Shown here piece by piece: positions 967-18,730 of a DNA stretch of 22,197 bases. This DNA comes from Paraspadella gotoi. Its lineage: Eukaryota > Animalia > Chaetognatha. Made by a program: the position numbers and the translations under genes. The notes under the pieces are model-generated. The model made no database searches. It was not told the origin of the DNA and worked only from the letters and a program-made list of their open reading frames with translations. The stretch lies in the NCBI GenBank assembly GCA_051294375.1, contig JBJCIZ010000039.1:1-22197 (forward strand). Reading direction: 5' to 3'. How positions within the stretch are numbered: the stretch's first letter is position 1; every line of letters starts with the position of its first letter.

Positions 967-2257
967 ATTTTAGTTGCTTGGTTTCGCTCGGTTTTTTGCC
1001 TCGTCGATTGAAAATTAAAAACCCTGAATGGATATTTAACAAAATTTAAAAAGGCCTCTTCTTTCTTTTCAGTGTTTTCTTTACCGTGGGAGGTCGAGTT
1101 GCTACTATGGCAACAAAGGTTGCCAGTCTCTTCATTGACAGGATCGAAGTTTAGTGAGACTTTTAAATCGCCGGTCATAAACTGTGAGCCAGATAAATTG
1201 ACCGCTTTTCGTCAGACGAGTCCTCAAACAACTGACGGTATTCAGGGCGAAAGAACGCACAAAGATGGTTTACATGCTTACGAATTTTAACTGGCCACTA
1301 GGGCTTAGGGGAACTCGAAGCGCAAGTTGGTGTGCCGTGCGCGACGCGCCACTTCGGCGAAATGGCTACGGAACTCTGTTAGGAGGAAACTCTTTAGTTG
1401 GGGTTTTAATATTCTCGTAATAATGTTTCTTTCATGAAAGGCGAGACAAGAAAAATGCATAAATTACCCATTTTATCAAAACTGATCGTAATCTGTTTTT
1501 CAAAATCCCTGAACATTTTTTTAATGAATATAAGACTGCGATTGCGGTACGGTTGCTTTTATGACAACAACTACATATTTTGGCATTGCATTTACTGGGT
1601 TGCGTGGTTTAGAGATCTCCCCGATGGTTGCTATGGTCTGGGGTGAATGTAGGGTAGGAATGCGATATTGGGTCAGTTAACGCCTCGCCCGCCCACACTG
1701 TTGCATTTGACTCATAATAGAATCCGACGGACTTTAGAAAAAGAGAATATTAATCCTGAAAATCTCCCTTTGCCTCGGTTCTTACTACATTTTTTAAGTC
1801 GAGAGTTTATTTAGGTTTGTAGTGATTTTTTTTTTTCGTAGTGTCCATTTTGTTTTTAGAAAAGTGTAAAAGAAATTTTGTTTAGATAATCCGTATAGTA
1901 AATTTTTTTCTTTCATTTAGCTATTTTTTTAGAAAATTTTTTTTTCACGTCGTTTAGCGATATAATAAAATTATTTTCGTGCACATTTTCTTTCTCAGTT
2001 TTTTGTTTTTTAAATGCCTCGCGGTAATCTTGACCCATTTCGGAATCCATCGCCACCACTGGGATTTCCCATAAACGCCGAGAAGTTCGACGCCTACGCG
2101 GAATTGATCCAGCAAGAATTATAGAATTAATAAAGGGTGCTTTGGACGAAACTCAAGTTGATCCAGTCCCGCGATCAATCACCATAGACAATATTAGAAT
2201 ATTAAAGCGCCAGGACAATACTCTAAGAATCCGCTGCACAATTCGGACAAATGGACA

Positions 2258-3412
2258 ATGAAGATGAACGACGCGGCTGGCCAGGGAGTTGGCGACAACT
2301 CTAGCTACAGGTATGAAAGAAGGTTGAAAGCCCAACACGAGCAGACTCGTGAAGACATGGACGCCTTTGGTGAGTGGAATCATCGTTATATGGAAAAACA
2401 AACAGATGCTTTTCAACATTTAATTGATTTACAGCATAGGAATCATCAAGAGGATCTAAAGATAATGATGAACAAGATGGAGGAAATGCAAATTTCTCAT
2501 CAGCTTGCTGCTGAAGCAGAAGCCAATGGTGAAAATTAATCTTCCAAAGTACGATGGCGTCTCCGTGGCATTTGAGGATTGGCGGGATAACGTAAGTGCA
2601 ATCTGTAAGTCAAATGGATGGGAAGATGTTAAAAGAATCATGGAAATCCTTCCGTCGTCCCTTACTGGGTCTGCTAAGCGAGCCTTTGAATCTCTTTCAG
2701 GAGAGGAAAAGGAGAATTTGGAAACTATGTTTGTTGGAATGCAGCTGCAACTGATCCCTCGTCGGAAGAAAGGAATCGCCAGTTGTTTGCTTCAGCAACG
2801 AAAAATTCGGGAGAAACTATGACTGCCTTTATCAACAGGTGTAAAATGTATTTAAGAAGGTTTAATATGAATCCGTCATCTGATTTAGCGCTTGAAATGT
2901 GTAAACAAAAACTTCTTTCTAATTGTCGTTCAACAGACAGCCGCATAATTAAAGCAACAGTTTCAAAAAATGCTTCTTTGCAGGAATGGACTCAGAAAGC
3001 GGACGAAATTATTGGGACGAACGATTCGTGCATCGGAGGAGTTACTGAACCCGATGACGCGGCGACGGATAAAAAGGTAAGCTCGGCGTCGTTTAAAGCA
3101 GTCGACAGTAAAAACATAGCTTGGGTCCCGATGGTATATGCTAATAATGAATTTACTCCATATCAACTGCAGCCTGTTCCCATGTCGCCGCCGACTAGCT
3201 TTCAAACTCGGACACGGTCCTCTGTCTCCACGGGCTCTTCAAGCTCCCAACGACGGCCAGGGAATGGAATAACCTGTTGGAACTGTGGAAAGCCTGGTCA
3301 TGTTCGTTCTCAATGTAGAAAAAGATTCACAGGTAATCAAAATACAGAGGAAAATATAAATCAAAGGGAAACTCAAATTGAAAATACAGTACAGAATCCT
3401 TTAAACTCCTAA
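2258..3412 (+). pseudogene. gag: Gag (capsid plus CCHC nucleocapsid), split into three ORFs by two frameshifts
   Basis: LPKYDGVSVAFEDW...LTGSAKRAF capsid-like motif (2505-2822); GETMTAFINR MHR-like motif; zinc knuckle CWNCGKPGHVRSQC at 3275-3316; ORFs at 2258 and 2783 share a frame, 2505 is +1. Confidence 0.85.
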
Positions 3413-3433
3413 AGCCCTCCTATTTAGGAGGGC
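3400..3433 (+). promoter_or_regulatory. -1 programmed ribosomal frameshift signal (gag-pol)
   Basis: T TTA AAC at 3400-3406 in X XXY YYZ phase in gag; 7-nt spacer; stem GCCCTCCT(3414-3421)/AGGAGGGC(3426-3433); -1 frame is open into pol at 3442. Confidence 0.85.
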
Positions 3434-3441
3434 AAAAATTT

Positions 3442-6282
3442 ATGACATCAAGAAAACCTTTTCCGGAATATGAAATAATAAGTTTATTTGCAGAACATGC
3501 TAATGTTAATTCGTTCTTACCAAAGGTTAAGGAAGATTTTTACGACGACCTCGAACAACAACCGTCGGTCTCTTTATTACTTGGAAGCATTAGAGGAATA
3601 CCATTAAATCTCGTAATTGATACAGGTGCGGCCAGGTGCTTGCTACTTTATGAACTATATTGTAAAATAAATCCAGATAACTCTTACATGCTTTATCCTT
3701 ACGACAAATGTTTTGAGGCAATAAATGGTAGTAAGCTTGAGTGTATTGGATTTGCAAAATTACCAACAATATTTTTTGGGATAAAAAATAATTATGAGGC
3801 CACAATTAAATTCTTTATAATCAAGGATCTCGCTGTAGAAGCTTTACTCGGTTTAGATGAAGTCAATCGTCACGGTCTCGTATTAAACGTCGCCCAAAAT
3901 TCTTGTTTGCAGCCAAAAGCTGGGGAACTCATTTTACAAAAGGTTTTTCGAGACCCAATCCAAATCCGTTCGGTGACGGTGGAAAGAGACGTGATGATCA
4001 AACCTCTTTCGCTCGGATGGGTGCCATTAAAGCTTCCAAACTGTCAACGCGGCGTTCTTGGGATAATGGAACCTATTCAGGAATCCTTTACAGGTGTTTT
4101 TATAGCAAATATTTTGTGTTATGAAGAGGATATAATATATGCCAAAGTAGCAAATCTAACAAAGGTTGAATTTCCCTTTTGTCTTGGAGAGGTTTTTGGA
4201 GAATTTTTTCCAATTGAAAATGATTATTTTAATAGGGAAGAATCTAATGCGTTTGGCGTCGGGAATGTGGAACCGCTGTTTGACTCAAGAGGGGAAGAAA
4301 AAGAAAATTTCGACGAAGCTAAGGATCTCGATATGTTCCAGGCGGAGCCGTTGGACGACTGTGATTTTGGATTGGGGAATTCTCCGGCGACCGAGGAAGA
4401 AAAACAAAAGGTAAAAGCAATAATAAGGAAATATAAAGATATTTTTCAAATGGACGGCGTCCCAGTTTCCGTGGCTCACAGAGTAAAGCATAAGATAATT
4501 TTAAAGCCGAATACTAAACCAATTAAACAAAGGATGAGAAGGTTCTCTGATTCTCAAAATGATATTATTGATAAAGAAGTTGAAAAACTGATTTTGCAGG
4601 ACATCGTGGAGCCCTCAACGTCGGAATGGAATAATCCCATCGTTTTGGCGTCGTCACCATACAAACCTAAACCAAGAGTCTGCTTTGATTTACGACAAGT
4701 TAATAAAGTAAGCCTGTCTGACGCTTATCCATTGCCTCACATTGATAAAGTGATTAGCCACTTCTCCGGTATGCGTTATTTTTGTAGCCTCGATCTTTAT
4801 CAAGGATATCACCAGATGGAGTTGGAGAGAGAGAGTCGGCCAATTACAGCCTTCAGTACCCGGCGTGGCCTTTGGCAATTCAAGCGGCTTCCATTCGGAA
4901 TTTCCTCAGGGCCGGCGTCTTTTCAAAGGTTGGTGGAAGATGTGCTGAAAGGATTAAATTGGGAGATTGCTATAGTTTTTATAGATGACATTATTTTATT
5001 TGGTAAAACAATACAAGATGTTTCAGAGAGGTTAGAGATTATATTTCAAAGAATTCGGGATTCTGGTTTAAAATTGCGGGCAGCAAAATGCAGCCTTCTG
5101 CAGGATCATGTTGAATATTTGGGACACGTTATTTCACACCAAGGCATAAAACCCTGTAGGCGCATTGTGTCAGCCATTTTAGATTTTCCTCGGCCGCACA
5201 ATGTTAAAACAATTATGCGCTTCTGTGGACTTTCAAATTTTTATAGAAGTTTTATTAAAAATCACTCTGTCATCTTGGAGCCACTAACCAGACTGACTCG
5301 TAAAAATGTTGATTTTAATTGGACAGATGAATGCGAATCTGCGTTTGGGGCTATTAAAGAAAAGATTGCTCTCATTCCGACTCGACACTATCCTGACCCA
5401 AAGCTTCTCTATGTTTTGTCCTGCGATGCAAGTGCATTTGGTATTGGCGCTGCGCTGCATCAAACAGACTCAAAAGGTAGGTTAAAGGTTTTGGGCTTTG
5501 GATCCCATCTTCTGAAACCATCTGAAAGATTTTGGTCGACAACTGAAAAGGAATTATATTCTATAGTTTATTTCATAAGAAAATTTCGGCATTTTTTGAC
5601 AGGAGTGGGATTTTTAGTTTTAAGTGATCATGGTGCTCTCCGTTATATTAATACTTTAAAAGATTCAACATCGCGAATCGCTCGCTGGTTGAATTTTTTA
5701 CAAAATTTTCATTTTGAAATTCACCATATTTGTGGCACTGCCAATGTTCCTGCAGACGTTCTCAGCCGCGCGCACGAACCTATCTTGGATACGACTCCTA
5801 CAATTGCCCAACAACTTGAAAAACCCATCTTCAAACTTGTGCGTGGGAAATCACCGATCTTTACGGAATTTTTCCGTCTTCAAGCGCCATCAGAAGAGGA
5901 CTTTGACGACGAAGGTAATTTAAGAATAGATAGCGATATAAGGGAAACTAAGATAAAGGAAGAACCCGCTCAATCCGTTTTAAAGAAGTTGGAAAAAGAG
6001 TCTGTCAATGGCTGTCAATCTTGCTGGTTGATTCAGGAAAGAAATTTTCTTTATACCATAGATGAAAAATTCGAGAGCCGAGACGACGACGGAGATGACG
6101 ATGGCGGCGAAAGAAACGTCGTCCACAATGGTCGCAGTAAGGATGAAGAGGGCAACGAAGACTGTTATGGCGACAATGGCGACGGCGAAGTCGCCGATAA
6201 CAGTGAAAACGACGAGAATTGCGGCGTCAATGGTGACGACGGAAATGGCACCACCAGCGATGACGATGGCAGTGAAACATGA
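3442..6282 (+). CDS. pol: Pol: aspartic protease, reverse transcriptase and RNase H with acidic C-terminal tail; no integrase
   Basis: LVIDTGA (protease); CFDLRQVN, DAYPLPHID, SLDLYQGYHQ, LPFGISSGPASFQR, FIDDII (RT); CDAS, EKELYSI, SDHGAL, ADVLSR (Ty3-type RNase H). Probably entered by frameshift at 3406. Confidence 0.97.
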   Translation: MTSRKPFPEYEIISLFAEHANVNSFLPKVKEDFYDDLEQQPSVSLLLGSIRGIPLNLVIDTGAARCLLLYELYCKINPDNSYMLYPYDKCFEAINGSKLECIGFAKLPTIFFGIKNNYEATIKFFIIKDLAVEALLGLDEVNRHGLVLNVAQNSCLQPKAGELILQKVFRDPIQIRSVTVERDVMIKPLSLGWVPLKLPNCQRGVLGIMEPIQESFTGVFIANILCYEEDIIYAKVANLTKVEFPFCLGEVFGEFFPIENDYFNREESNAFGVGNVEPLFDSRGEEKENFDEAKDLDMFQAEPLDDCDFGLGNSPATEEEKQKVKAIIRKYKDIFQMDGVPVSVAHRVKHKIILKPNTKPIKQRMRRFSDSQNDIIDKEVEKLILQDIVEPSTSEWNNPIVLASSPYKPKPRVCFDLRQVNKVSLSDAYPLPHIDKVISHFSGMRYFCSLDLYQGYHQMELERESRPITAFSTRRGLWQFKRLPFGISSGPASFQRLVEDVLKGLNWEIAIVFIDDIILFGKTIQDVSERLEIIFQRIRDSGLKLRAAKCSLLQDHVEYLGHVISHQGIKPCRRIVSAILDFPRPHNVKTIMRFCGLSNFYRSFIKNHSVILEPLTRLTRKNVDFNWTDECESAFGAIKEKIALIPTRHYPDPKLLYVLSCDASAFGIGAALHQTDSKGRLKVLGFGSHLLKPSERFWSTTEKELYSIVYFIRKFRHFLTGVGFLVLSDHGALRYINTLKDSTSRIARWLNFLQNFHFEIHHICGTANVPADVLSRAHEPILDTTPTIAQQLEKPIFKLVRGKSPIFTEFFRLQAPSEEDFDDEGNLRIDSDIRETKIKEEPAQSVLKKLEKESVNGCQSCWLIQERNFLYTIDEKFESRDDDGDDDGGERNVVHNGRSKDEEGNEDCYGDNGDGEVADNSENDENCGVNGDDGNGTTSDDDGSET

Positions 6283-6644
6283 TTAATGATGGTGATGGAG
6301 ACGCTGCCCTCGTCAAAGACTTAAGATATGCACCCCGTGGAATGCTTTTCTTTTGACATTAAAATAATTGATGATTCTTTTAAACAAAACAATTTATTCA
6401 TAAAAATAGTAAAATTAACGTCGTCCGGGGATATATATTTTCTTTTCTCTAAAAGCTCTTTCTGAACATTGTGTTTTTGTCTTAATCAATTCAATTGGCG
6501 AGTTTTGGGATGTTGGCTATTTTGTTGCTCATAAATAGGGCCCATTTTATGTGTAATTGTTTGCCTTCATTTCTTTATTTGTCGCGTGATTTAAATATTT
6601 TTTTGTTTTCTTTGGTTTTGTTTTGTTCCATTTTGCAGGACGAA

Positions 6645-7877
6645 ATGGACGGAGAAGCCGGTACCGATGGAGATATGATGGAGCAAGGCCTTGCGGTGGG
6701 ACAACCAAATTTAGATCCCGTATCTCAAGCGGATGGAACCGTTTTTGCTTTGATTGATAACAATGGGAATGTTATGGAGTGGCTTTTAAATGAAGAGAAT
6801 CCGGGTACAAATGTATCCGAAGAAGTCGCTACTGCTCAACCCTCAAATGAAAGTATTTTTCCAGTCACGATCTCTAAAGGGTTGGTTCAAGAAATCTCTC
6901 ACGATGTAAACTTGGAAAAAAGTTTACCGATCAATGAAAACATTATTTTGCCAGAGGCGATGGGGTTGGACTTGTTGGCGGAAAACAAAGAAAACATACC
7001 CCCGATATTTTCCCCGGTTGACTTTGCAGTGCCGCAAACACTGGTTGATCAAAACCCTTTAAATACTACCAGCAAGCAAGAACGTGGACCTCCCTCACTC
7101 GACAAATTGCCTAAGGAGATTATTTCATTAATTTTTCAGTATCTCCAGCCACATGACGCTTTGCAACTGGCGGCCGCTTGTAAGTCAACCTACGATCTGT
7201 CACCGCTTCGAATCTGTCATAATGACGACATTCCAGGTTGTGGTGGTGACAATTTAATTGTCATTTTGGACAACGTCGACAACTACAAGAGGTTACAAGT
7301 GGCTCTTCAAGAGGGTCGGTTTCAAACTGTGAATGTAATTTTGGCGAGCAACCTGACTGAGTTGGAATCTCCAACCGAGTGGAATAATTTAAAAAAATTT
7401 TTTTGTTATGCAACCCAGGATGGCGTTTTTCCCATTGACAAATTAGAAATATTTCGAGAAGTTGGAGATTGTGGATGTAGACTGGGCATAATTGCTAATT
7501 ATGTTAGATGCCTAATCATGTCGGGTTACCAAGATGTGTATGTTCTGAGAAAGCTAGTAAAAAATCTTATAGGGACTGGGGGTTCATTCACAGAGAAGAT
7601 CGTCTTGACTGGAGAGATCAGCCTACGCGAAGCCACTGGATTAAGGAAGAAGATGCCAACGAGCATCGACCTGGCAATACGGGAAGACCGTCTTATTGTT
7701 CGAGGAGTCGCTGTGGGAAGCCTTAATGCACATATGGAAGGAATAAATATTTTTACGGAAAAAGAAGAATCCAAGTTTGTGCCATCACGTTTGTTTGGAA
7801 TTGACATTGATTTCATGCAGGATGATGTAAGGGTCCCTCTTGCAATTTTAATGGCAAGGGCAGTTTTACTGCGCTGA
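6645..7877 (+). CDS. F-box domain protein (accessory ORF, ~410 aa)
   Basis: LDKLPKEIISLIFQYLQPHDALQLAAACKSTYDL (~7098-7200) fits the F-box consensus; acidic N-terminus; the track's start at 6495 reads through a T-rich tract ending TTTTGCAG(6638), so ATG 6645 is preferred. Confidence 0.75.
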   Translation: MDGEAGTDGDMMEQGLAVGQPNLDPVSQADGTVFALIDNNGNVMEWLLNEENPGTNVSEEVATAQPSNESIFPVTISKGLVQEISHDVNLEKSLPINENIILPEAMGLDLLAENKENIPPIFSPVDFAVPQTLVDQNPLNTTSKQERGPPSLDKLPKEIISLIFQYLQPHDALQLAAACKSTYDLSPLRICHNDDIPGCGGDNLIVILDNVDNYKRLQVALQEGRFQTVNVILASNLTELESPTEWNNLKKFFCYATQDGVFPIDKLEIFREVGDCGCRLGIIANYVRCLIMSGYQDVYVLRKLVKNLIGTGGSFTEKIVLTGEISLREATGLRKKMPTSIDLAIREDRLIVRGVAVGSLNAHMEGINIFTEKEESKFVPSRLFGIDIDFMQDDVRVPLAILMARAVLLR

Positions 7878-8019
7878 GAATCGCTTTCTTCAGTAAAGAC
7901 TGATTGATCAACTTATTGCTCTTATGTTTCTTTTGGTCAAATGTGAAACGAGCTGATTCTCTTTAAAAGTAATAAGCTTTGTTTGCCGTTTTCCCCTTGT
8001 AGGTCATCTTTATCATAAA

Positions 8020-8448
8020 ATGTCAGATATTGTCGCGGAGGCGATGCAAGCGGCACTGATCGCAGATCAAGAATCTCTGGAGACTCTGGAGAACGTCTCC
8101 ACAACACTTGATGAGTTTTGTGCTTCGGGTGGATCAAGCAAGTCGGGGAATCGTGTTGATGAAATGGCGATTCTATCTTTGGAAAAGCCGTTTCAAAAGA
8201 TTCCTGAAGGGACAGTTTTTGTATGTCAAGCTTGCGGCAAAACATTTGGTCAAAAAAAGGGTCTAGACGGGCATAAGCGAGTCCATGGTAAGCATGAGAT
8301 CAAAGAGTCATGGGACAGCGAAACGGAATGCAAACGTTGCCGGAAAACTTTACCTTCCGAAGACTCAGCGATTATCCACGTCTTGAAAAGACACAGGCCT
8401 CAGTTGTACGAGAAACTGAAAGGCGACATTTTGTTCAATACAAAATGA
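8020..8448 (+). CDS. Small two-finger C2H2 zinc-finger protein (142 aa)
   Basis: FVCQACGKTFGQKKGLDGHKRVH (canonical) and CKRCRKTLPSEDSAIIHVLKRH; AAAATG start context; acceptor CCCCTTGTAG ending 8002. Confidence 0.85.
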   Translation: MSDIVAEAMQAALIADQESLETLENVSTTLDEFCASGGSSKSGNRVDEMAILSLEKPFQKIPEGTVFVCQACGKTFGQKKGLDGHKRVHGKHEIKESWDSETECKRCRKTLPSEDSAIIHVLKRHRPQLYEKLKGDILFNTK

Positions 8449-8569
8449 ACGGGTTCTTTAGTGTTTCAGTTCATTGTGACTCATGTATGCAAACTGTGGC
8501 TAGTCCTTGTTTTGCTCGTTTTGATTTTCTTTTTTCAGCTAAAATTAAATCGGTTTTGCATGATCGATC

Positions 8570-9136
8570 ATGGAATGGCTTAACCCTTCAAAGGGTCAAT
8601 TGATGGCTATGATCAATTTTGGCCACAGCCAGGTGCCAATACAGTCGGTTCCACCAATGATAGTTGTCATGATTGAGCACCCTTTAAATATGGCAACCAA
8701 AATAGCCTACGAAATGGCAACAATGGCTGCATCAAATTCATGGCGTCAGGAAGCCAACATTCTTTATTATCTTCTGAGTGGAAACACGAAAGCAATCGTC
8801 AGTGCCCTGGTTAATGTAGAAATAAATGGCATGACAACAAACCTTAAGGATTTGAATTTATTAAGCAACTCACTCGCCCTTACTGAACAATTTCACTCTA
8901 CCATGGTTGGATACCACCAAAGCTCAACCTTGGGCTCAAACGTAAACCCAAGATGGTTTAACTTGTCAGGGATTCTTTTGATGGCTCTACAGCTTGTTGG
9001 GTTGCTAATCAAAGTTTTTTATAAACGAGAAGCCACAAATCTTAATTTATTGTATTTTACGTTTTATCGTGAATGGATGAGAAAGAAAATTGTTGTGAAA
9101 GGAACTACCGTTTTAGTTGATGCCAAGTTTGCATAA
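8570..9136 (+). CDS. Hypothetical protein with a possible transmembrane helix (188 aa)
   Basis: Open 188 codons in AT-rich DNA; hydrophobic WFNLSGILLMALQLVGLLIKVFY followed by basic residues; acceptor TTTTTTCAG ending 8538. Confidence 0.6.
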   Translation: MEWLNPSKGQLMAMINFGHSQVPIQSVPPMIVVMIEHPLNMATKIAYEMATMAASNSWRQEANILYYLLSGNTKAIVSALVNVEINGMTTNLKDLNLLSNSLALTEQFHSTMVGYHQSSTLGSNVNPRWFNLSGILLMALQLVGLLIKVFYKREATNLNLLYFTFYREWMRKKIVVKGTTVLVDAKFA

Positions 9137-9271
9137 AAATTTTTTTGAGTCGATGTGTCAATTCTTGTTGTTGTCTGTATATATATATTTTTTTTTTCCC
9201 TGTTTGTTTATTTCCAGGTACTCTCTTATTCCGTTATTTTTTTTCTCGAACACTCGCACCTGCAAGAGAAA

Positions 9272-10465
9272 ATGTCGGGAGAAGAAGCAACCAGGTCGCG
9301 ACAAGCCCTTGAAAACAAAGTTCGCGAGCAGCGGACAGAAATAAACACTTTGAAAGTATCGCTTGAGCGGGCCGAGCGTGACGTATCTTTCTTACGGACG
9401 CGCCTTCGCCATGAAGAACATGAAATGAATCATCTTCGATCGTCTCTTCGCCTTTGTCATGAGACATTAAGTTCTGCAATAAATCCACCCTCAGGTGGAA
9501 CATCGCGACCATCAAGTTATGATGGTTATCGTCAAGGGGAGCGTCGCTCAATGATTCCGCGTCAGAATCGTTTTATTCAGAAACGTCCGCAATCAGCCTC
9601 AACCCCGGAGCGTGATCGAATCCGGAAAACCTCTCTGTCTCCGGTTCCGCGGAAAAAAGCTGAAAGAAGCAAGTCGCCTGAATACACGGTGGAAGATTTG
9701 CAAGAAGCAGATGAGCGCCGTCTCTCGATCAACTTAAAGGCAAGAGAAATCTTGGCTAAAGATCAAGATGACAACGGGCGAAAGCGATCAGGAGCACGTT
9801 CCCAAGAGTGTCGTCGTCGAGATACCGAGCGCAAGGACGACGATCGTAGAAAGGAAGATACGGTAGTAATTCCGAAACAAAAGCCACCGGAAAACCAGGA
9901 ACAAAGTCGAACAGAAAAAGAAAAGAAAGCAAAGAGAAAAGACAATGAGAAGACCGATAGCGAATCCGACCTGTCGCTTATTGCCCGTTGTTCGGACGTC
10001 GACATGATAAACCTAAGTCTGGGCTCCAACCTCCCGTCATCGCCAAAAGAGCCGACATCCTACCAGGCCCTTGAAATGGCCCCGCCTTCGTCTTCCAAAG
10101 GCAAAAAGTCTTCCAAGGAACCAAAAAAATCGGTGGATGAAGGGAGCGTAAGGCATATGCTCGACCTACTGAAGAAGTACAAGGATAAGGCGGATTGCAA
10201 GGAGCCGACGCATCAATTTGGGCAGCATTTTGCTCGCCGTTTGGCCCAAAAACGAAAATATCTTTCCATTAAAGAATTTCTCAAAGATAATTGCAAGTGC
10301 TGTGGCCTAGATCATCAGGAGGAAAAAAGATGTGAGCCTAGATGTCCAAGTTGTTGGCATAAACACCGTGGGCATAAAGGCCCATGCTGTCAATGCATAG
10401 TTGATTGGAATGAGGAATTAAAGAAACTATGGGATAGACTGGCGTCCTCGAGCTCTGGAGATTGA
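9272..10465 (+). CDS. Coiled-coil, R/S/K-rich protein with Cys/His-rich C-terminus (~397 aa)
   Basis: Heptad-like LENKVREQRTEINTLKVSLERAERDVSFL; charged low-complexity middle; CKCCGLDH...CEPRCPSCWHKHRGHKGPCCQC; upstream in-frame part (9155-9271) is T-rich with TTTCCAG ending 9217. Confidence 0.7.
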   Translation: MSGEEATRSRQALENKVREQRTEINTLKVSLERAERDVSFLRTRLRHEEHEMNHLRSSLRLCHETLSSAINPPSGGTSRPSSYDGYRQGERRSMIPRQNRFIQKRPQSASTPERDRIRKTSLSPVPRKKAERSKSPEYTVEDLQEADERRLSINLKAREILAKDQDDNGRKRSGARSQECRRRDTERKDDDRRKEDTVVIPKQKPPENQEQSRTEKEKKAKRKDNEKTDSESDLSLIARCSDVDMINLSLGSNLPSSPKEPTSYQALEMAPPSSSKGKKSSKEPKKSVDEGSVRHMLDLLKKYKDKADCKEPTHQFGQHFARRLAQKRKYLSIKEFLKDNCKCCGLDHQEEKRCEPRCPSCWHKHRGHKGPCCQCIVDWNEELKKLWDRLASSSSGD

Positions 10466-10556
10466 GTTCTTTAGCTTTTCAGTTCAATTGCTTGGGTTCA
10501 ATTTCTTGGGTTCTGGAGATTGAGTTCTTTAGCTTTTCAGTTCATTTGCTTGGGTT
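10454..10556 (+). repeat. ~45-bp direct duplication (period 58) spanning the stop codon of the Cys-rich ORF
   Basis: TCTGGAGATTGAGTTCTTTAGCTTTTCAGTTCA(A/T)TTGCTTGGGTT at 10454 and 10512. Confidence 0.9.
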
Positions 10557-10785
10557 TGCGTTTTGGTTACAAAAGTCTTGTTTTTAGTTGGTTTTTTTTT
10601 TTTTTTTTCTTCTTTTAGTCAATTGTGTTCTATCTGTACGTTTTAAAATATGTGAAATGAAAATTTGACATTTGTCCTTTCACTTACTTGTTTCATTTAT
10701 CTTCTGTTAGGAAGATCATCATCATCATTATGATTATATATTGTTGCACAACAACCTTATTTGAAAATGACATTTTTATATTCAG

Positions 10786-12375
10786 ATGGAATTATTCAGT
10801 GAAAATATTTTTACTGTGTTTGAAGATGAACATTACGCCGCTATAAACGTTAAAAGCCATCAAGCCACGGATCCCGAGTTGACTACAATTGTCAACATAA
10901 TAAATGAGAAAACTGAAACGCTAGAGAAATCCCTACTGCCGTGGCGAAATTCGTTTAAACAACTCTGTGTTGAAGATGGTATTCTGTACAAGGCAACTAC
11001 CAATGGTCTCGTGTTGGTCGTCCCAAAATCTCTGCGCACTAAAATTTTACATCGCGTTCATGGCTCGAAGTGGGCATCGCATTTTGGGATCAACCGGAGC
11101 TATCATGTTTTAAAAAGCAGGTATTTTTGGCCTTTAATGCTTAAGGATTTAGAAGAGTTTATAAGTCAATGTGAAGAATGTTTAAGGCGAAAGAACCCAG
11201 TAAAATCACAAAGTTCCTATTCTCAACCTATTAATTTTGCTTCCACACCAGGAGAGGTTATCGCACTCGATGTTAAAGGCCCTTACATTACGAGCGAAAA
11301 AACGAATGCCTATCCTTTTGAATGCCGGTTCTGCCTCGTCATCGTTGACTACGCCAGCAGGTATTCTATGGCGATTCCGTGTGAAAATGTAAAGGCGGAG
11401 GTGGTGGTTGCGCATTTGTTTAATCGCTGGTTTCCTTTGTTTGGTCTCCCGACGAGAATAGTAACGGATAATGGGCGAAATTTTAAATCTAAGATTATTA
11501 AATATATGTTACAGTGTCTTCAAATTGATCATAGTTTTACTGCCATTTATCACCCTCAGTCTAACGGGTTGTGTGAATCAATCAACAGAGTACTGGGCGG
11601 GATTCTTTCTTCCACTATTGACGGCACTGTGGAAAAATGGCCCAGCTTCATCGACGCCACCATGCTGGGATACAACTCGGCTCCCCAAGAAACAACAAGA
11701 GTCTCCCCAAATCACATTATCTTTGGGCGCGAGTTGGTTCAACCACTGGACATTGTGTTTAACACAAATCCGTATTCGAAGGTAAAAATATCAGTAGACA
11801 AATATATAATTGAAAGAAATACATTAAGGGAAAAAGCTTTAAATTTTGCAATTTTGAATACATCTATGTCGCAGGAAAAAACGGCAAAACGTCTTGCAAA
11901 TGAAAAGGTAATCAACGATTTGGAGCCGGGCGATCCTGTTGCTTATAAACTGCCCAGAAAGAAAAACAAACTGAAACCAAAATGGGAAATTAACTATAAG
12001 GTAAAAAAGAAAATTTCGCCATTGACATATGTAATTAGTAATGATGTAAAATCAAAAGTAGTTAATCGATCTCTGTTGAAAAAAGTTCCACCAAAATCAG
12101 AACTTTCCTCATTTGATATTGTAAATTTAGGAAATTTGACCTCGACAGCCAAAGCCGAAAAAACAAAAGATCAAGCTGACGACATTGCCTGGAATCCAGA
12201 CGTTTCAAGTTCGGGTGAAGACGACGCCAGTGATAGTAAATGTGAAGATATCAATGACTGGTCATTCGGTAATAAAGATCATGGCGCGGAACCAACGACT
12301 CTTAATACTTCTTTAACTAAAACTCTACGTAACCGCGATAACTTGAGAAAGCCAAGTCGTTATGAGAAATATTGA
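10786..12375 (+). CDS. Gypsy-type DDE integrase as a stand-alone ORF (529 aa)
   Basis: HHCC zinc domain (HGSKWASHFG...CEEC); ALDVKGP, VTDNGRNF, YHPQSNGLCESINR (D,D,E); GPY/F-like KLKPKWEINYKV; ATG directly after TTCAG. Confidence 0.95.
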   Translation: MELFSENIFTVFEDEHYAAINVKSHQATDPELTTIVNIINEKTETLEKSLLPWRNSFKQLCVEDGILYKATTNGLVLVVPKSLRTKILHRVHGSKWASHFGINRSYHVLKSRYFWPLMLKDLEEFISQCEECLRRKNPVKSQSSYSQPINFASTPGEVIALDVKGPYITSEKTNAYPFECRFCLVIVDYASRYSMAIPCENVKAEVVVAHLFNRWFPLFGLPTRIVTDNGRNFKSKIIKYMLQCLQIDHSFTAIYHPQSNGLCESINRVLGGILSSTIDGTVEKWPSFIDATMLGYNSAPQETTRVSPNHIIFGRELVQPLDIVFNTNPYSKVKISVDKYIIERNTLREKALNFAILNTSMSQEKTAKRLANEKVINDLEPGDPVAYKLPRKKNKLKPKWEINYKVKKKISPLTYVISNDVKSKVVNRSLLKKVPPKSELSSFDIVNLGNLTSTAKAEKTKDQADDIAWNPDVSSSGEDDASDSKCEDINDWSFGNKDHGAEPTTLNTSLTKTLRNRDNLRKPSRYEKY

Positions 12376-12440
12376 TTTCTGTTGTGCTTATTAGACAATT
12401 GGAGTTTTGTTCAAATTTTTTCTGCTTAAATTTTAAATAG

Positions 12441-13436
12441 ATGCCGCGAGAAATTATCAATGATCCGGCCGGGCGCGACCCTAAATTCCTCCCAATAACC
12501 GAGAAAACTTTCATGGGTATTAACTTTAAAGTAAGATGGGAAGAAAGTAAAAGAAATTGTTTGTACAGGACGCTCGCCTCAGGCGTTTTTGGTGGGACGA
12601 AAACTTATAATGAAGTAAAGAATGAGATTATTTACTACGCTAAAAACAATTGGGATGCTTTTGCGCCAATGATCAAAGAGCTTCATGGGATAATTGAATA
12701 TAAAGAGTACGCCACGGCTCTTCAACTCAATCTCCATAGTCCTCGAGAATCTGAGGTTTTGATCGCAACGGAAGCTTTTAAGACTCCGCTCATCGCCATT
12801 CCTTCGGCTCGAGACGATTTCCTTGCGTTTAATCTAAGAAAGTTTACAAGTCGGCCCGTCTTCTTTCTCCTTTCCGCTTTTTTCGACGACGACGTGCGCG
12901 CGTGTTGGCTGCACGCAGATTCGTTGGAGCCGGCAAGACCCCTTACGCGAACGGAGGCACTACGAATGCTTGATCCCCGTGACGAAGGAACACAATTTCT
13001 TGAGACAGGATGTCCAGTTGATTTTAAAGCTGCGGAATTTAAATTACTGTATCGTCTAAAAGTCGTCGAAAATGAATCACTTTGCTCATGGAATGGACTT
13101 CAGTTAAATCCTTGCAAACAAAACATTTTAATGAGCATGAATGTGTTCAGCATTCCCCCGCAACCGGACTCATGGCCTCACCGTATGACGCGTCTTGTCA
13201 TGAACAACCTGTGGCAGCAACACCACGCGCCATTCTGTTCACTAACAGTTGCTTTTGAAAATATCATACTCAGAACGTATATGATGCGAAACGGTGATCG
13301 TGGAAGAAAACTTACATTCTACGATATAGTGGGAGATGAGTGCGCCTTTTGTCTTCATTTTGATGTTGGCGTCAAGTGGGCAAGATCTCCGGTAGAAAGA
13401 AAAGGATCGTTTTTACATTCAGTCTCATCATTTTAA
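12441..13436 (+). CDS. OTU-like cysteine protease (deubiquitinase-like) domain plus unknown C-terminal domain
   Basis: RNCLYRTLASGVFGG..YNEVKNEIIYYAKNNWDAF resembles OTU DGNCLFRA..; ESEVLIATEAF resembles the E-L-x-A helix; WLHADSL resembles HYDSL. Confidence 0.6.
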   Translation: MPREIINDPAGRDPKFLPITEKTFMGINFKVRWEESKRNCLYRTLASGVFGGTKTYNEVKNEIIYYAKNNWDAFAPMIKELHGIIEYKEYATALQLNLHSPRESEVLIATEAFKTPLIAIPSARDDFLAFNLRKFTSRPVFFLLSAFFDDDVRACWLHADSLEPARPLTRTEALRMLDPRDEGTQFLETGCPVDFKAAEFKLLYRLKVVENESLCSWNGLQLNPCKQNILMSMNVFSIPPQPDSWPHRMTRLVMNNLWQQHHAPFCSLTVAFENIILRTYMMRNGDRGRKLTFYDIVGDECAFCLHFDVGVKWARSPVERKGSFLHSVSSF

Positions 13437-13942
13437 TGACTGTAACGGAAGTTGTTGTGAACAACGAATATGCCACCAGCATTTACAGGCACGGGAGATC
13501 CTCAACGGCGTGTAACCGTTCAGATGAAAAGATATGTTGCCAATGCGGGAGGATGATGCTGGAAAAGATTGGAATCGATATGTCCGGGACGAGAGAAGTG
13601 GACGAATGGGTCTCTTCCCTCTTTATTAATCGGAGGTATTGTTCAAGAGACAATGTTTTTCGCGTACAACGCTACCTCGCTCTTGAAGCCCTCATGCCGA
13701 AAGGGGCGACGTTCCACCCCCTCTTCGTGGCTCTTCTTCTCAGCTATGGACTCGATTATCTACTAAAATTGAAAGCCGTTCAAAGTGACGCCTTCCTAGA
13801 AAACCAATGGTCAAAAATTCGATCGCTATTCACCGAAGAACGTCGTCTCAAAACGTATCAAGGAATGTACGTTGTCGAGGGAGTCTATCAGACGGGTAAA
13901 ACGCGCCGACGATTTCTTACTGTTGAGCAACAATGGGAATAG
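13436..13942 (+). CDS. Hypothetical protein (~168 aa) with N-terminal Cys/His cluster
   Basis: ATG 13436 overlaps the upstream stop (TAATG); HGRSSTAC...CCQC; acceptor TTTTTACATTCAG ending 13422; AATAAA downstream at 14095. Confidence 0.6.
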   Translation: MTVTEVVVNNEYATSIYRHGRSSTACNRSDEKICCQCGRMMLEKIGIDMSGTREVDEWVSSLFINRRYCSRDNVFRVQRYLALEALMPKGATFHPLFVALLLSYGLDYLLKLKAVQSDAFLENQWSKIRSLFTEERRLKTYQGMYVVEGVYQTGKTRRRFLTVEQQWE

Positions 13943-14326
13943 TTTTTAAATTTTTTTGTGTAGTCAATTTTAATTCGTTTCAAGTAATCTTTGAGGACGA
14001 TTTTATTTTATATACTTTGCCTCGTCATTTGTTCTATGAAAATTTTATTTAAACGTCGTCAATTGTCATGAGTAAAATTCTATCCACGTTTAAAAATAAA
14101 AAGAATTCTTTGTCCTCCACTTGAGTAAAATTAAAGCAAATCCTTAGTCAGCATTTATAATTAAGAAGGGAATTCGAAGTGGTACAGGAAATAAATAATC
14201 GTCATTAATAAATTAAATATAACCATGATAGGATCTTAGCCTGTAGGACTATCGCGGCGGTTTGGTGTTCTGCCCGGCGGATACGTCGATCTAAGAAATT
14301 CTCAGCGCTCATTGATAGTAGTCGTT

Positions 14327-14456
14327 CTGGTCGGGGAGAGTTGCAACCTTTTCATCACCCTGTTCCGGACTCCTGGTCGGGGAGAGTCGCAGCCTTTTCG
14401 TCATCCTGGTCGGGGAGAATCATTATTTCGTGACTCGGAATCCTGGTCGGGGAGAG
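14327..14456 (+). repeat. Four copies of CTGGTCGGGGAGA with related spacers
   Basis: Copies at 14327, 14373, 14406, 14443; fifth partial copy TGGTCGGGGAG at 15243. Confidence 0.9.
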
Positions 14457-14835
14457 ATCTCCGATATCACCTACAATTTACACACATTACAATAGGAACT
14501 AAAGACTAAAGACGTCATCAAATTAAGGTGAAGATTTTGATTTATTAATACGTCTCATTGGTTTGTTTTTTTGTTTTTTGTTTTTTTTGTTTTTTTTTGG
14601 TTTTGTTTTTACAGATAAGTTTTTAGAACTGTGTTTCTGTAAAAATTTTTTTTTTTAAGTGCGTCTCTCTGTAAAATTGTCGTTTTTGTTTTTTTTTGTG
14701 TGGGTTTTCTAGATTCTTTAATTTGCCTCTTTAGATTGTATCTCTGTCATTAAAGGTAAGTATAAGAGATAGATTCTTAAAACAATACTGAATAAGATTG
14801 AGATTTTATCAATCCCATTTGTATAAAGTAGTAAA

Positions 14836-15207
14836 TCATTTTAAGTCCAATTGATTTTTGTACCGTTTCATTAGTGGGCATATTATTAGATTACCATGCG
14901 GTTCTATATTGTTTAATAGTTTAATTAATTCATGGTTAATTTTGTGATGACTTGATAGAATAATTATGTTATTAATGATTGAGAGTTTATCTCTATCTTG
15001 GGTGACCTTTTCATAACTCATAAATACTTTATTATTCAAAGGTGAAATCCATGGTCGAATTGGACAAAGGAAGTACTCCCATGATAGAATTCCATATTTC
15101 ATATACCTGAGCCCCACTCCTATATAAGTTTTTAGTAACTGTGTCTCTGTAATTTCTTTTCTTTTTTTTATTGAAATGAATATTTTTGTAGCAGGTGCCG
15201 TTGCCAA
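14836..15207 (-). CDS. Possible antisense hypothetical protein (123 aa)
   Basis: Open 123 codons in very AT-rich DNA; no recognisable motif; non-ATG start in the track. Confidence 0.25.
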   Translation of the reverse strand: MATAPATKIFISIKKRKEITETQLLKTYIGVGLRYMKYGILSWEYFLCPIRPWISPLNNKVFMSYEKVTQDRDKLSIINNIIILSSHHKINHELIKLLNNIEPHGNLIICPLMKRYKNQLDLK

Positions 15208-15257
15208 GTCTTAGGGTTGTAGTTTTGGGGACCAAAACCGGGTGGTCGGGGAGGATG

Positions 15258-15402
15258 TTTCTTCCTTCCTATCCTTAGGTTGCTGAGCAGGGATGAGAAT
15301 ATTAGCTCAGGTACCTCCTCTTTCCTTCCTATCCTTAGGTTGCTGAGCAGGGGTGAGAATACTAGCTCAGGTACCTCTCTCTTCCTTCCTATCCTGAGCA
15401 GG
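15258..15402 (+). repeat. 60-bp tandem repeat, ~2.4 copies, next to the assembly gap
   Basis: TTCCTTCCTATCCTTAGGTTGCTGAGCAGGG..GAGAATA.TAGCTCAGGTACCTC repeated with period 60. Confidence 0.9.
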
Positions 15403-15421
15403 GCGAGATCCCTAGCCTCGT

Positions 15422-15446
15422 NNNNNNNNNNNNNNNNNNNNNNNNN
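15422..15446. other. Assembly gap (25 N)
   Basis: N run. Confidence 1.
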
Positions 15447-15783
15447 TTCTTTACATTTTATTTGGTTATTTTATATGATACGATCATAGAAAGTGAATTA
15501 GTCCATTTTGGTGAAATTTTTATTTAAAGTAAAAGTAAAAGAGGAGCTAACGATCGGAATTCTAAGAGTTTTCAACCGGGAGTCAGATTCAGTAAAAATC
15601 TTCTATGGCGAAAATCTTCAAAGAAGGGGTGGATTTTCCGAAGATTTTGGTTGATATTTTCTATATTTATGGTAGGATTTTTTTGAAACTTAATATTAAC
15701 AATATTGCCATCATTCTACTTGGCCGGTATAAGAATATATTAACAAAGTTTGATTTTATTTTGCAACGAATTTTATTTTATAA

Positions 15784-15828
15784 GAGCAGACATGTTTCGG
15801 CTCACAATACGAGCCTTCTTCAGCGCAC
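15784..15828 (-). ncRNA. Minimal type I hammerhead ribozyme, Penelope-like-element/retrozyme style
   Basis: Minus strand reads GTGCG-CTGAAGA-A-GGCTC(gtattgt)GAGCC-GAAA-CATGTC-TGCTC: CUGANGA and GAAA cores, 5-bp stem II, palindromic ACATGT stem III, GUC cleavage triplet; AATAAA follows. Confidence 0.75.
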
Positions 15829-15863
15829 ATGAGTTATGAACTTGATACAAGTTTTTAGTTAAA

Positions 15864-15866
<3 letters not shown>

Positions 15867-15897
<31 letters not shown>
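15867..15897 (+). repeat. (AG)n microsatellite
   Basis: About 15 AG units; a degenerate second tract lies at ~16005-16039. Confidence 0.9.
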
Positions 15898-15900
<3 letters not shown>

Positions 15901-17254
15901 AAGGTTTCCAACAAAGAATTGAGTAAGGACAGTGATCAGTGGTGAGGACAGATTTTAGGAAGTGGCTAGTTTGAATAAGTTTTGAAAAGAAGTGAAAATT
16001 GGTGAGAGAGATAGAGAGAGAGAAGGGAGAGAGAGAGAGACAAAATAATAAATAATTACATTTGAGCAATGTACAACATAGATAAAGATAATGGAAACTG
16101 TTTTATAACAAATTGAAATAATAATTTTTGAAATGAAATTGAAAAGTTGAAAATTGAAATTGAGAAGTTGAAAATTTGAGATTTTAGAGAGATAGATAAG
16201 TAAGATTGTAGTGAAATATAAGAATTAAGAAAGAGCTCAAAATGAGCTGGGCCCCCCCGGTCTTATGAAGGAGAGGTATTGCTGACGGGGCGCGGTCATT
16301 GGCCGCGTCATGGGTTGAAGGATAATGGATTGATCTCGTGTTGGCTGGGTCAGGTATTGCTCCCTGAGGAAACAAACCCAAGGCCACCCTTATATCCCTC
16401 TGGCCTGATGCGCCTGCCGGTGGCCCTCTTCTCACCTGACGGGGAGGTGGGCGGGTATCCACTCTTGCCACTTTAGTGACTGGGATGGTGGAATCCTCAT
16501 CTTCCTGTAGCCGTCGTTTGGGGCGACGCCCAGACCTCAGAGAAAGAGGCTGAGTTGCTGCCCGGAGATTCGGAGTGTCAGGTGCCCATCGCTTAACGAG
16601 GGTCTCCGCCTTACCCGTTGAGTAGGGATAGGATCTCTCTTTCTTTTAATTTTGAGAGCCCTTCAGACATATGGCTATCGGATTCCTAAATTTGAAGTTT
16701 ATTGTAAAATCACAACATACCTTAAATGCGTTGACATTGTATTTAAGTTGAGAAATCCCTTTATTTTATATATAAAAATTGCATCGAAAATATTTTCCCG
16801 AGCGGACCAGTCTATTTGAATCTGATGGTTTGATGTCAAAATGATGGTTATTTGTCAAGAGGGAAAAAATGCGAGCCCTTCAGATCCAACAGGATCGGAA
16901 TCGAGTGTTTTTACATCTATTTTTTACCTGAATTTTTCCCAGGGGTGTTGACATTATTTGGTAGTCAGATTTTAATGAAAATCTCCATTGATTTCTAAGA
17001 ACGACGTCGACTCCTACCTGGCGAATAGTTTTCGAGCGTCGTCGGGCTTTCGAACTTCACTAGGGATACTGGTTTCTGCGAAGGGAGAAAATTTTGGGAA
17101 ATAAAATTTTCGGGCCAGTTCTTTGGGACCGGTAGAACGTTGACAATTTACCGAATACGTACATCGACCACACCGCGCTGAACGAGGACGCCGTCAAACC
17201 CGGAGACCGGTGAGGAACGGAGAAGAGCGTATTAAACCCTGAAGCCGACGCAAA

Positions 17255-18730
17255 GTGAGTATGACGAGGCCTACGCCGCAAGGCGATGGCAGGAGTGAAA
17301 CCTTGGCAGAAAAAACTGGTTATTTCAACAATCCTAACAACGTAAACGGACGCGGGGTACGATCGTTCCTCAACAATTTACAAGCGGAGTTAGAATGTTT
17401 TAAGATCGCGTATCATCAAGCCAAGGTTGAGCTCTCGGTTCGAACCGCTCACAAAGCTAACGGAACCTGAGAGCGAGTTTGGACGTTATTTCTTGAACTG
17501 TCACGTTTTATTGCACTGCACCCATCTTTCTAAACCGATCGTGTGCGTAGATATTTAAACGAGGAATCACCTGAATCCGTACCGTACGTCGTAGGGAATT
17601 GTCCTATTGTTTTTTATATTGAATTGAGTGCCGCGTCAAAGTCGAATCTGGAAGCTAAAGAAGAGGAAGGGGGGGAAGAGGAATTAGTTACCGTTGAGGA
17701 GCTGACGGGATCGCCATGTTCCCCCACAAAAAAAAACCCACCTTTGCGTCATAGTAGTCCGTTGCCGCGCGTACGAAACTGGTTGGAGTCGACGCCGGAC
17801 TCGTCCGAATCACCGCGTGCGGAGGAGGAGACGCCCATGTCGCCGGCCCACTCTAGAATAAGCGTCGTGTCGTCAAGGAGAAATACCACGGCCACTACGC
17901 TCTCACCACGGTCATCACGTGAGACCGTGCGTCGAAGGTTAGTCGAAGAGCTGGAAAACATGGAAAGAAAAAAATTGGAGTTGGAGGCGAAAGAACAGAG
18001 GATGAAAATGAAAGGGAACAGGTCGAACTTAATTTTCAAAAGAAAGAGACGGAAATGGAGGAAAGAATGATGAGGGAAAAATTAAAGCGTATAAACGAAA
18101 GCAGTACTGACGAGTAAGGCGTAGTAAAATTTCTAAATTTAACTTTATTAAAATTTTAAAAGTGGGGAACGAACAACATTATATTAATAAACATTTATGT
18201 AATAACAAAATTTATAATAAATTTTACAATTTACGCAGTAGGCCATATTTATACTAGTACTAAACCAATAAATGTTAAAATTTCAAAACAGTTTTTTTCT
18301 AAGATTTTTTGCAGATTTGGATTCGTCATAAAAAGTTGATATAAAGAAATATAATTAATTCTTTTTGAAAAATTCCTTTATTAAGTGGTCAAAAATTAAA
18401 AAAAGCTATACTTAAGCTGAAAATTAATTTTTATATATTAATATAGTTTTTTTAATTTTTTAACCTACTTAATTGAAAGAATTTTAAAAATGATTTATAT
18501 TTTCTTTTATCAACTTTTGACGAGGAATTTAAATCTGAATTAAAATTGAGAAAAGCCTATTTTGAAATTTTTCGATTTTATAAAGAATAAAAAAACAAAA
18601 AAATAATTTTTTTTACAAATTAATGTTCATTGAAGGTATGTTGTTCATAATTGACTTTTAGAATTTTCGTATGTAACTTTCACTACGCCTTACTGACGAG
18701 GTAACACAGGCTGCCACACAGGCACTATGA
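17255..18730 (+). pseudogene. Decayed ORF with Ser/Arg-rich segment and Glu-rich coiled coil, interrupted by a MITE; possibly a retroelement gag N-terminus
   Basis: SRISVVSSRR..SPRSSRETVRRRLVEELENMERKKLELEAKEQR continues after a frameshift as EKLKRINESSTDE and, past the MITE, VTQAATQAL*. Confidence 0.35.
18115..18692. mobile_element. 578-bp foldback MITE with 8-bp TSD (hAT- or P-type)
   Basis: Ends TAAGGCGTAGT / ACTACGCCTTA are perfect inverted repeats; TSD CTGACGAG at 18107-18114 and 18693-18700; interior is an imperfect palindrome (e.g. AAAAGTTGATATAAAGAAATATAA vs TTATATTTTCTTTTATCAACTTTT). Confidence 0.92.

Follow-up and report, generated by a model that had tools for sequence, protein, structure and literature searches.

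The window, the whole stretch of 22,197 nt analysed here from the chaetognath Paraspadella gotoi, holds a Ty3/Gypsy-type retroelement of ~12 kb at 2014..13942, whose closely packed ORFs are all co-oriented on the + strand, as the preliminary description had stated. ORF mapping and Pfam searches gave the order gag, a protease–reverse transcriptase–RNase H (PR-RT-RH) pol, four accessory genes, a separate integrase ORF and an OTU-like gene, with a coding share of 90 % and spacers of 29–356 nt, of which the six downstream of pol contain 41–57 % T, in agreement with the short T-rich spacers first noted. The frames of pol, integrase and the accessory ORFs are all open, as had been claimed, and the dense packing of nine units was borne out, but not their number, which is probably eight, since the two most downstream ORFs probably belong to a single gene. 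The genes and signals are as follows.

2014..3412, + strand: gag, lying in several frames in the window, with a CCHC zinc knuckle near its end
3399..3437, + strand: predicted −1 frameshift signal from gag to pol, a slippery heptamer in the gag frame followed by a hairpin
3442..6282, + strand: pol, 946 aa, with protease (DTG), RT, RNase H, a lineage-specific tail and an acidic end; no integrase
3300..6286, + strand: spliced-only frame of 423 codons in nine exons, three in the pol frame and the others in alternative frames
6645..7877 (first ATG 6510), + strand: F-box protein (F-box-like, Pfam E 1.5e-6)
8020..8448, + strand: small C2H2 zinc-finger protein (zf-C2H2_6, E 2.5e-6)
8570..9136, + strand: orphan protein with one predicted membrane helix (hydropathy peak 2.18)
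9272..10465, + strand: charged protein rich in Arg, Ser, Glu and Lys by composition, with a Cys/His-rich end
10786..12375, + strand: integrase with H2C2, DDE core and SH3-like parts, its ATG directly behind an acceptor
12441..13942, + strand: OTU-like gene, probably one of about 500 aa (window ORFs 12441-13436 and 13436-13942)
13943..14560, + strand: transcribed 3' region (X7 contig 13742-14554) with poly(A)-like hexamers, four 21-nt repeats and no LTR match

Gag was identified by its zinc knuckle (zf-CCHC, Pfam E 4e-6), and no Pfam capsid match was found in it. The contigs of sequencing runs X1, X5 and X7 have common indels relative to the window within 965-2809, and for this reason the breaks in the gag frame look like assembly errors. 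At the gag–pol boundary the hairpin has a predicted energy of −16.1 kcal/mol and the pol frame is open upstream of the pol ATG; XXXYYYZ heptamers are known −1 frameshift signals, and it is on this basis that the mechanism is predicted here.

The RT and RNase H are of Ty3/Gypsy type by both Pfam and structure matches. The closest solved RT-RH was that of Ty3 (247 bits), with a score above that of 8r0s (180), a caulimovirus enzyme, and retroviral chains reached ≤90 bits. No env was found, the only membrane candidate being one short protein with one helix, and the presence of an integrase also sets the element apart from the Caulimoviridae. With gag upstream of pol (zf-CCHC) and the order PR-RT-RH then integrase, the layout is that of the Metaviridae, except that the integrase lies outside the Pol polyprotein, with the Pol stop at 6280-6282 and the integrase start at 10786. 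In ordinary Gypsy loci a median of 277 nt separates RNase H from integrase, as against 5 kb here, and in 49/60 the two lie in one open frame. The 11 of these 60 controls in which one open frame was not seen were considered as further cases of a separate integrase and set aside, as in the six loci examined, out of nine mapped, the frame is interrupted at varying positions, a pattern typical of decay.

Among 157 proteins compared by RT-RH, the closest 12, which form eight clusters, have 49–52 % identity to the window Pol, whereas the others have ≤43 %; all 12 are without integrase and end 87–105 residues after RNase H. A quick tree of 60 of the 158 rows placed the window Pol and these integrase-less relatives in one clade (SH-aLRT 97), nested among Gypsy-type Pols, in the absence of named clade references. 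A profile of the Pol tail built from eight relatives matched, among 186 proteins, only members of its own clusters and the window (E 1.5e-13); the predicted fold of this tail was of low confidence. Because the eight relatives in one clade also lack integrase, the detached integrase is, as far as these sequences tell, a lineage trait, which favours the earlier suggestion of a potentially undescribed lineage. No DNA of the lineage was found in viral contigs or prokaryote genomes; one metagenome scan came up empty, and another yielded 80 Gypsy loci of the ordinary kind, in which neither the Pol tail nor any accessory gene occurred.

The closest relative of the integrase, P0001 (41 % identity), begins at the same motif and likewise starts free-standing. 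Fusion of RNase H to integrase by splicing was also considered and rejected, as the donors in the Pol tail are of phase 1 and 2 and none is of phase 0. Because no in-frame donor joins Pol to integrase, the latter would be packaged as a free protein.

The gene order is genuine and does not stem from a misassembly. Short-read contigs from three samples run through the junction of pol and the cassette of accessory genes (X1 2669-9168; X5 4116-9050; X6 5713-6385 and onward), the X1 depth of 57.7–59.8 over 2669-13489 is flat from pol through the OTU-like gene, and the sole joint listed in the three DNA runs is a deletion in gag, so that none links RNase H directly to integrase, and the refuting condition named at the outset was not encountered. 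No repeats bound the cassette, and the proposal that all of this forms one unit is thereby upheld. The junction between cassette and integrase, 10483-10622, is without a bridging listed DNA contig, the method skipping repeats there. All six samples listed for the host, which come from three studies, carry the element; they differ little from one another, and pol has no listed difference. Non-synonymous changes account for four of the seven coding differences listed and all fall in accessory genes, a number too small to weigh. X1 contains extra copies of the 5' part (depth 87–156), one with a deletion, and there is apparently one full copy; near-identity among samples and the flat depth fit one locus, which may no longer be mobile.

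The termini proposed for checking were not recovered: no LTR pair (repeat finder, self-BLAST and local alignment against shuffles), primer-binding site or target-site duplication was found in the window, which starts 2 kb before gag, carries high-copy repeats and has an N gap at 15422-15446. The transcribed 3' region folds no better than shuffles (z 0.58), an Rfam search gave one match at chance level, and a tRNA search of the window gave none.

Searches of Pfam, PDB, the Atlas and the metagenome Gypsy loci turned up no relative of any accessory gene, apart from matches of a general kind to F-box, C2H2 and OTU motifs. In the F-box gene ATG 6510 sits within a pyrimidine tract and the likely start is 6645, after a strong acceptor at 6638; weak Atlas leads (score 0.85–0.88) point to nematode F-box clusters. 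The orphan protein gave no Pfam or PDB match, and the 9272 protein, with no Pfam match, is from its composition a candidate RNA regulator. Where the last two ORFs meet, X7 departs from the window by small indels, and the three DNA contigs there have one gap each and all end at one and the same position, which makes a single gene probable. The best match of the 12441 protein is the OTU protein P0157; OTUD1 matched it with E 0.0012, and its Cys motif, in an OTU-like domain at the start, aligns with both. It gave no Pfam match and nothing in the Atlas. The model of its OTU-like domain is of low confidence (pLDDT 48), with viral OTUs in the top two Foldseek rows (E 0.9–1.0), and PDB searches with the last protein and the F-box protein returned nothing significant.

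Pol, integrase and the accessory ORFs had been described as apparently uninterrupted by introns, a view that X7 overturns. This is a likely-RNA run, its RNA status being a guess as no run is recorded as RNA, and it shows 17 joints of 65–398 nt, 17/17 with GT..AG on the sense strand: 12 across gag-pol, three in the integrase, one from the F-box gene into the next spacer and one in the last ORF.

2370-2434, 2592-2700, 2839-2983, 3077-3172 and 3333-3525, + strand: gag-pol introns 1–5 (X7)
3626-3912, 4094-4235, 4411-4599 and 4708-4787, + strand: gag-pol introns 6–9 (X7)
4929-5326, 5477-5755 and 5915-6061, + strand: gag-pol introns 10–12 (X7)
7775..8002, + strand: intron running from the end of the F-box gene as far as the acceptor that precedes the C2H2 gene (X7 joint, depth 2)
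11361-11588, 11782-11874 and 12001-12130, + strand: integrase introns (X7 joints)
13636-13743, + strand: intron in the last ORF (X7 joint)

None of the 17 joints was found in the DNA runs X1, X5 and X6. The 12 gag-pol introns total 2130 nt, and their exons sum to a 2830-nt contig of X7 that shows no branches across 11 exons and is exceeded in depth by the gag 5' contig alone. GC content is 35 % in these introns versus 47 % in the exons. The introns excise catalytic residues of RT, RNase H and integrase, the first integrase intron taking out the second Asp and the Glu. The splicing data come from one run in the form of contigs, in which single molecules and levels are not visible; no trans-spliced leader appeared among loose contig ends, although contigs drop short tips. 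The analogy with complex retroviruses is stronger than originally claimed because the RNA from this one unit is multiply spliced, in the likely-RNA X7 only.

Splicing also creates the 423-codon frame, a putative coding frame mixing pol and alternative frames. Third-base GC in pol differs between exons (146/338) and introns (151/536; P 7e-6), an alternative frame is open in 7/8 pol exons (P 0.0006, 5000 within-class synonymous shuffles), and the five frames needed were all open in 5/20000 draws preserving the third-base make-up of each exon; the spliced frame itself has a P of about 0.0003 under codon-preserving nulls. Random splice paths reached 423 codons in 1.4 % of 1841 cases, with splice-site scores trained on the very sites scored. 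A splice-blind test of the alternative-frame openness of pol gave z 1.7–2.0, and 4/39 control Gypsy pols reach 1.7. Along the integrase (0/1500 shuffles) and pol (P 0.013), third-base GC is patchier than chance, suggesting that it is the sequence of the element itself that was shaped. The first intron brings an immediate stop into gag and a further stop lies at 3270; the 423-codon frame therefore lies behind upstream ORFs.

Complex retroviruses, such as HIV-1 with its Rev system, combine accessory genes with spliced and unspliced RNA, retroviruses remove gag-pol as one long intron, and in caulimoviruses the ORFs are tightly packed and Pol lacks an integrase. The present element resembles the first in its accessory genes and spliced RNA and the last in its integrase-less Pol and packed ORFs. 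With Ty3/Gypsy elements (Metaviridae, e.g. Ty3) it shares a CCHC Gag, the PR-RT-RH order, an H2C2-rve-SH3 integrase downstream of RH and the predicted −1 frameshift; unlike them, it has an integrase ORF of its own 5 kb past RH with four genes between, a lineage-specific Pol tail, 17 introns and no LTRs found in the window. Cer1 of Caenorhabditis elegans is also a Gypsy element in which spliced exons overlap the polyprotein and the enzymes need unspliced RNA, and its CERV, of five exons, one in another frame, is required for genomic RNA export (PMC10309623, excerpt). However, Cer1 as described there has one polyprotein with integrase, five exons and one extra protein, compared to 12 introns across gag-pol, three in the integrase and five or six accessory genes here. 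Planarian Burro is likewise a large Gypsy-like element, with ubiquitination- and apoptosis-related cargo, but has LTRs and one giant PR-RT-RH-IN polyprotein rather than short separate ORFs and a detached integrase (PMC6431247, excerpt). LTR elements of bdelloid rotifers with an ORF3 also have varied extra ORFs, typically on spliced messages, but place them behind an intact integrase-containing pol (PMC5408684, excerpt). No report of such a gene order or of introns across pol was found in the literature search, outside which lay Repbase, Dfam, GyDB, closed journals and supplements, and a catalogue entry may exist.

The element is best read as a member of a new Gypsy lineage that operates in the manner of complex retroviruses or of Cer1. 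Since many short introns remove the enzyme cores, it is likely a two-state splicing switch, and we place the combination of an integrase-detached lineage with such a switch at slightly better than even (about 0.55). Spliced RNA would give regulatory and host-manipulating proteins, and unspliced RNA alone would give Gag, Gag-Pol by the predicted −1 frameshift and active integrase. By analogy with CERV for Cer1, an element-encoded factor may export unspliced RNA from the nucleus, the first candidate being the charged 9272 protein and the second the product of the 423-codon spliced frame. The F-box and OTU-like proteins may target host ubiquitin pathways, and the downstream genes would be expressed via their preceding acceptors, at 6638, 8002, 8538, 9217, 10785 and 12440, by cis- or trans-splicing. 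The fullest version, a complex Gypsy lineage with integrase moved out of Pol, virus-like ubiquitin and RNA regulators, a second nine-exon gene that uses alternative frames of gag-pol, and 17 short introns across the enzyme cores through which a single splicing choice flips between regulatory and replicative states, is considered less likely than not.

Alternatively, the introns could be imposed by the host, its spliceosome cutting AT-rich segments out of a transcript foreign to it and nonsense-mediated decay sparing whichever path chanced to remain open; the element would then be silenced by splicing, and the 423-codon frame would be functionless. The introns are indeed the AT-rich parts, the splice-blind result is unremarkable, spliced gag meets early stops, the spliced frame is a patchwork, and P element splicing under host control is a known case (PMC6917496, excerpt). 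However, the needed frames are still improbable when exon-specific base make-up is kept, the patchy third-base GC suggests that the element's own sequence has been shaped, the spliced contig is unbranched and second in depth only to the gag 5' contig, and filtering by decay leaves it unexplained how the RNA survives with stops in its first exons; we regard this explanation as rather unlikely.

An improbable reading is that of a one-off chimaera, in which host genes that were captured and an integrase of unrelated origin lie next to an integrase-less Gypsy Pol of this clade, the cassette being cargo or a nested insert at this locus. The cassette is known from this locus alone and without termini, its genes carry host-type motifs, and the junction before the integrase is not spanned by a listed DNA contig, repeats being skipped there; yet pol, the cassette, the integrase and the OTU-like gene have the same depth, the coding density, acceptors ahead of genes and open frames argue for one unit, no repeats flank the cassette, and the nearest integrase relative also begins free-standing. 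Domestication as an immobile locus that lost its termini while the host keeps one or more products would agree with the missing LTRs, the transcription, the presence in every listed sample and the few differences between samples, with none listed in pol. Nevertheless, every catalytic motif is intact, as is the frameshift signal, and X1 has extra 5'-part copies; the non-synonymous differences among accessory genes also point away from it, although too few to weigh, and we consider this reading very improbable.

In summary, the placement of Pol and integrase in one polyprotein has, to our knowledge, been taken as fixed in Gypsy elements and retroviruses, and a clade making integrase separately raises the question of how integrase enters particles; its detachment may be a step needed toward integrase-free pararetroviruses. 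Annotation from DNA only overlooks the splicing layer completely. We know of the passage of unspliced retroelement RNA past host splicing and decay so far only for Cer1 and retroviruses, and the dense introns in RT, RNase H and integrase, together with open overlapping frames, provide a testable case of unspliced RNA evading both.

The ORF map of the window bore out the reading-frame positions proposed in the preliminary description of this ~12 kb Ty3/Gypsy-type element, and Pfam searches gave the following layout on the forward strand.

gag, made up of several reading frames in the window; zinc knuckle
3442-6282, pol, 946 aa; reverse transcriptase (RT) and RNase H (RH)
6510, F-box, and 8020, C2H2 fingers; Pfam cut-offs passed or approached
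8570, no Pfam match; one predicted hydrophobic helix
9272, no Pfam match; rich in Arg, Ser, Glu and Lys, with Cys/His at its end
10786-12375, integrase, 529 aa; H2C2 and rve
12441, no Pfam match
13436, no Pfam match

No env gene was found among these ORFs, and searches of the window for paired LTRs, tRNAs and RNA families were negative. Among solved structures, Ty3 was nearest to the RT-RH of the element. The sole match of the 12441 protein among 1.84 billion proteins was an OTU protein (E 6e-4), and its best solved-structure match was OTUD1 (E 0.0012); its predicted fold was of low confidence and the OTU-like assignment therefore remains a lead. A slippery heptamer (3399-3405) with a hairpin (-16.1 kcal/mol), together with a pol frame that stays open upstream of the pol ATG, predicts a -1 frameshift.

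Gypsy elements have their integrase within Pol, whereas this element does not; in 60 ordinary Gypsy loci the RNase H-to-integrase gap had a median of 277 nt and the two lay in one frame in 49. The best five of 695 RT-RH matches, and three more found via their profile, were Pol proteins of 582-880 aa without integrase. When 157 RT-RH proteins were compared, all 12 of those closest in RT-RH (eight clusters and four members, 49-52 %) lacked integrase and the remainder reached at most 43 % to the window Pol; 17 further proteins also had no integrase match, but these were without the lineage tail. The eight relatives stop 87-105 residues past RNase H, and members within a cluster stop at an identical residue though their contigs differ in length. 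A tail profile built from them matched the window Pol (E 1.5e-13) and otherwise only their own cluster members among 186 proteins, and a quick tree (60 of 158 rows, without named clade references) grouped all nine together on a single branch (SH-aLRT 97). Of the integrases, P0001 is the nearest to that of the element (41 %); it starts at the same motif, without a preceding RNase H. These protein comparisons make it very probable that a clade with a detached integrase exists.

The stretch is present in nine runs, representing six samples, three studies and one organism; the DNA runs X1 (a possible source of the window sequence), X5 and X6 and the likely-RNA run X7 were compared with it as contigs. 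DNA contigs cover the passage from pol into the four accessory genes preceding the integrase (X1 2669-9168, X5 4116-9050, X6 5713-6385 and onward), and X1 depth was 57.7-59.8 across 2669-13489. The spacer between this cassette and the integrase has no bridging contig because repeats there were skipped in the comparison. We consider the cassette probably integral to the element. The 5' part (965-2698) was deeper in X1 (87-156, 1.5-2.7 times pol depth), which indicates that partial or deleted copies of it exist, and a variant without 2569-2668 occurred at depth 36. Gag indels relative to the window were common to X1, X5 and X7, and all four runs differed from it where the last two ORFs meet, with the frames in between open; the frame breaks at both places are likely assembly errors. 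Eight genes are thus likelier than the nine originally counted.

The surroundings of the element in the window, its transcribed 3' region included, contain the following.

1-962, 150-nt unit in two degenerate copies (4-155, 198-332)
863-960, 98-nt poly(A) run directly 5' of the element's 5' region
14320-14456, direct repeat of 21 nt, present four times within the transcribed 3' region; does not fold stably
14560-15420, repeats of very high copy number (X1 depth, added up, as much as about 5000 versus 58 for the element), including a 60-nt tandem pair (15262-15398); these may hide the element's 3' end
15422-15446, N gap right after these repeats
15794-15823 (-), exact match to a CTGA...GAAAC core, presumably of the type in hammerhead ribozymes of Penelope-like elements; no Rfam match
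15773-16645 (-), decayed ORF pieces beside that core; no Pfam match
17000-18120 and 20023-21062 (+), GC-richer, ORFs of 178, 251 and 98 codons, then poly(A)-like signals; without a match in Pfam; possibly another mobile element
18277-18571, 295-nt imperfect palindrome, apparently MITE-like
21437-22078, tandem duplication, 306 nt

Pol, the integrase and the accessory ORFs had been described as apparently free of introns, a view contradicted by X7, in which 17 joints were seen, each of them GT..AG in sense orientation. The stretches removed measure 65-398 nt, with a median of 145, and the length is divisible by three in eight. The RNA status of X7 is a guess, and the splicing evidence consists of contigs of this one run. 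None of the 17 was among the joints listed for the DNA runs, where a gag deletion in X1 was the only one; three joints beyond the first listing are probably the three seen later in X7. Twelve introns remove 2130 nt from gag-pol, and with them the FIDD motif of the RT, two motifs of RNase H and the larger part of the protease; a 2830-nt contig equals eleven exons summed. Removal of the first intron brings an immediate stop in gag, and the first integrase intron takes out the second Asp and the Glu; a contig at depth 2.3 within the latter points to some unspliced RNA or DNA. In every downstream gene, a pyrimidine tract and an AG lie a short way 5' of the ATG. Predicted acceptors there score 2.8-11.6 (minimum of used sites, 5.2), that at 8002 being the only one seen in use.

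From 3300 onwards, the spliced RNA can be read through 423 codons, with three exons in the pol frame and the others in alternative frames. An alternative frame is open in seven of the eight pol exons, a count matched by 0.06 % of 5000 synonymous within-exon shuffles; the five needed frames were all open in 0.02 % of 5000 such shuffles and in 5 of 20 000 draws keeping each exon's third-base make-up, and 1.4 % of 1841 random splice paths gave an ORF of equal length. Three points weigh against these figures: an exon-blind test of alternative-frame openness gave z 1.7-2.0, equalled by 4 of 39 control pols; the data are contigs of a single run; and decay of isoforms with stops could select an open splice path.

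We favour, at a probability of about 0.55, splicing as the element's own switch. The main rival is that host-imposed splicing silences the element, for which PMC6917496 gives a P-element precedent; a one-off chimaera and a domesticated locus are lesser alternatives. Active Gag-Pol and integrase can be made only from intron-retaining RNA. No donor joining Pol in frame to the integrase was found, and the integrase would therefore be packaged as a free protein. The F-box and OTU-like proteins may target host ubiquitin pathways. A word search of PMC6338049 returned neither OTU nor F-box.

Captured ORFs mostly sit downstream of pol, and Burro, unlike our element, keeps PR-RT-RH-IN together in one giant polyprotein (PMC6431247); rotifer elements add ORF3 3' of pol (PMC5408684) and Copia elements make gag mRNA via one splice (PMC5580714). 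The related metagenome Gypsy loci L012, L017 and L025 carry an extra ORF of 680-1070 codons 3' of the integrase, with a C-terminus common to them. The layout described here was not found in the literature searched, repeat databases, closed journals and supplements lying outside that search. CERV, which Cer1 needs for export of unspliced RNA, is made from an mRNA of five exons, one of which is read in a different frame (PMC10309623); Cer1 and retroviruses, like the element as read here, make their enzymes from intron-keeping RNA. By this likeness, the candidates for a regulator of unspliced RNA are the 9272 protein and the spliced frame, and the element would work like a Gypsy core operating in the manner of a complex retrovirus.
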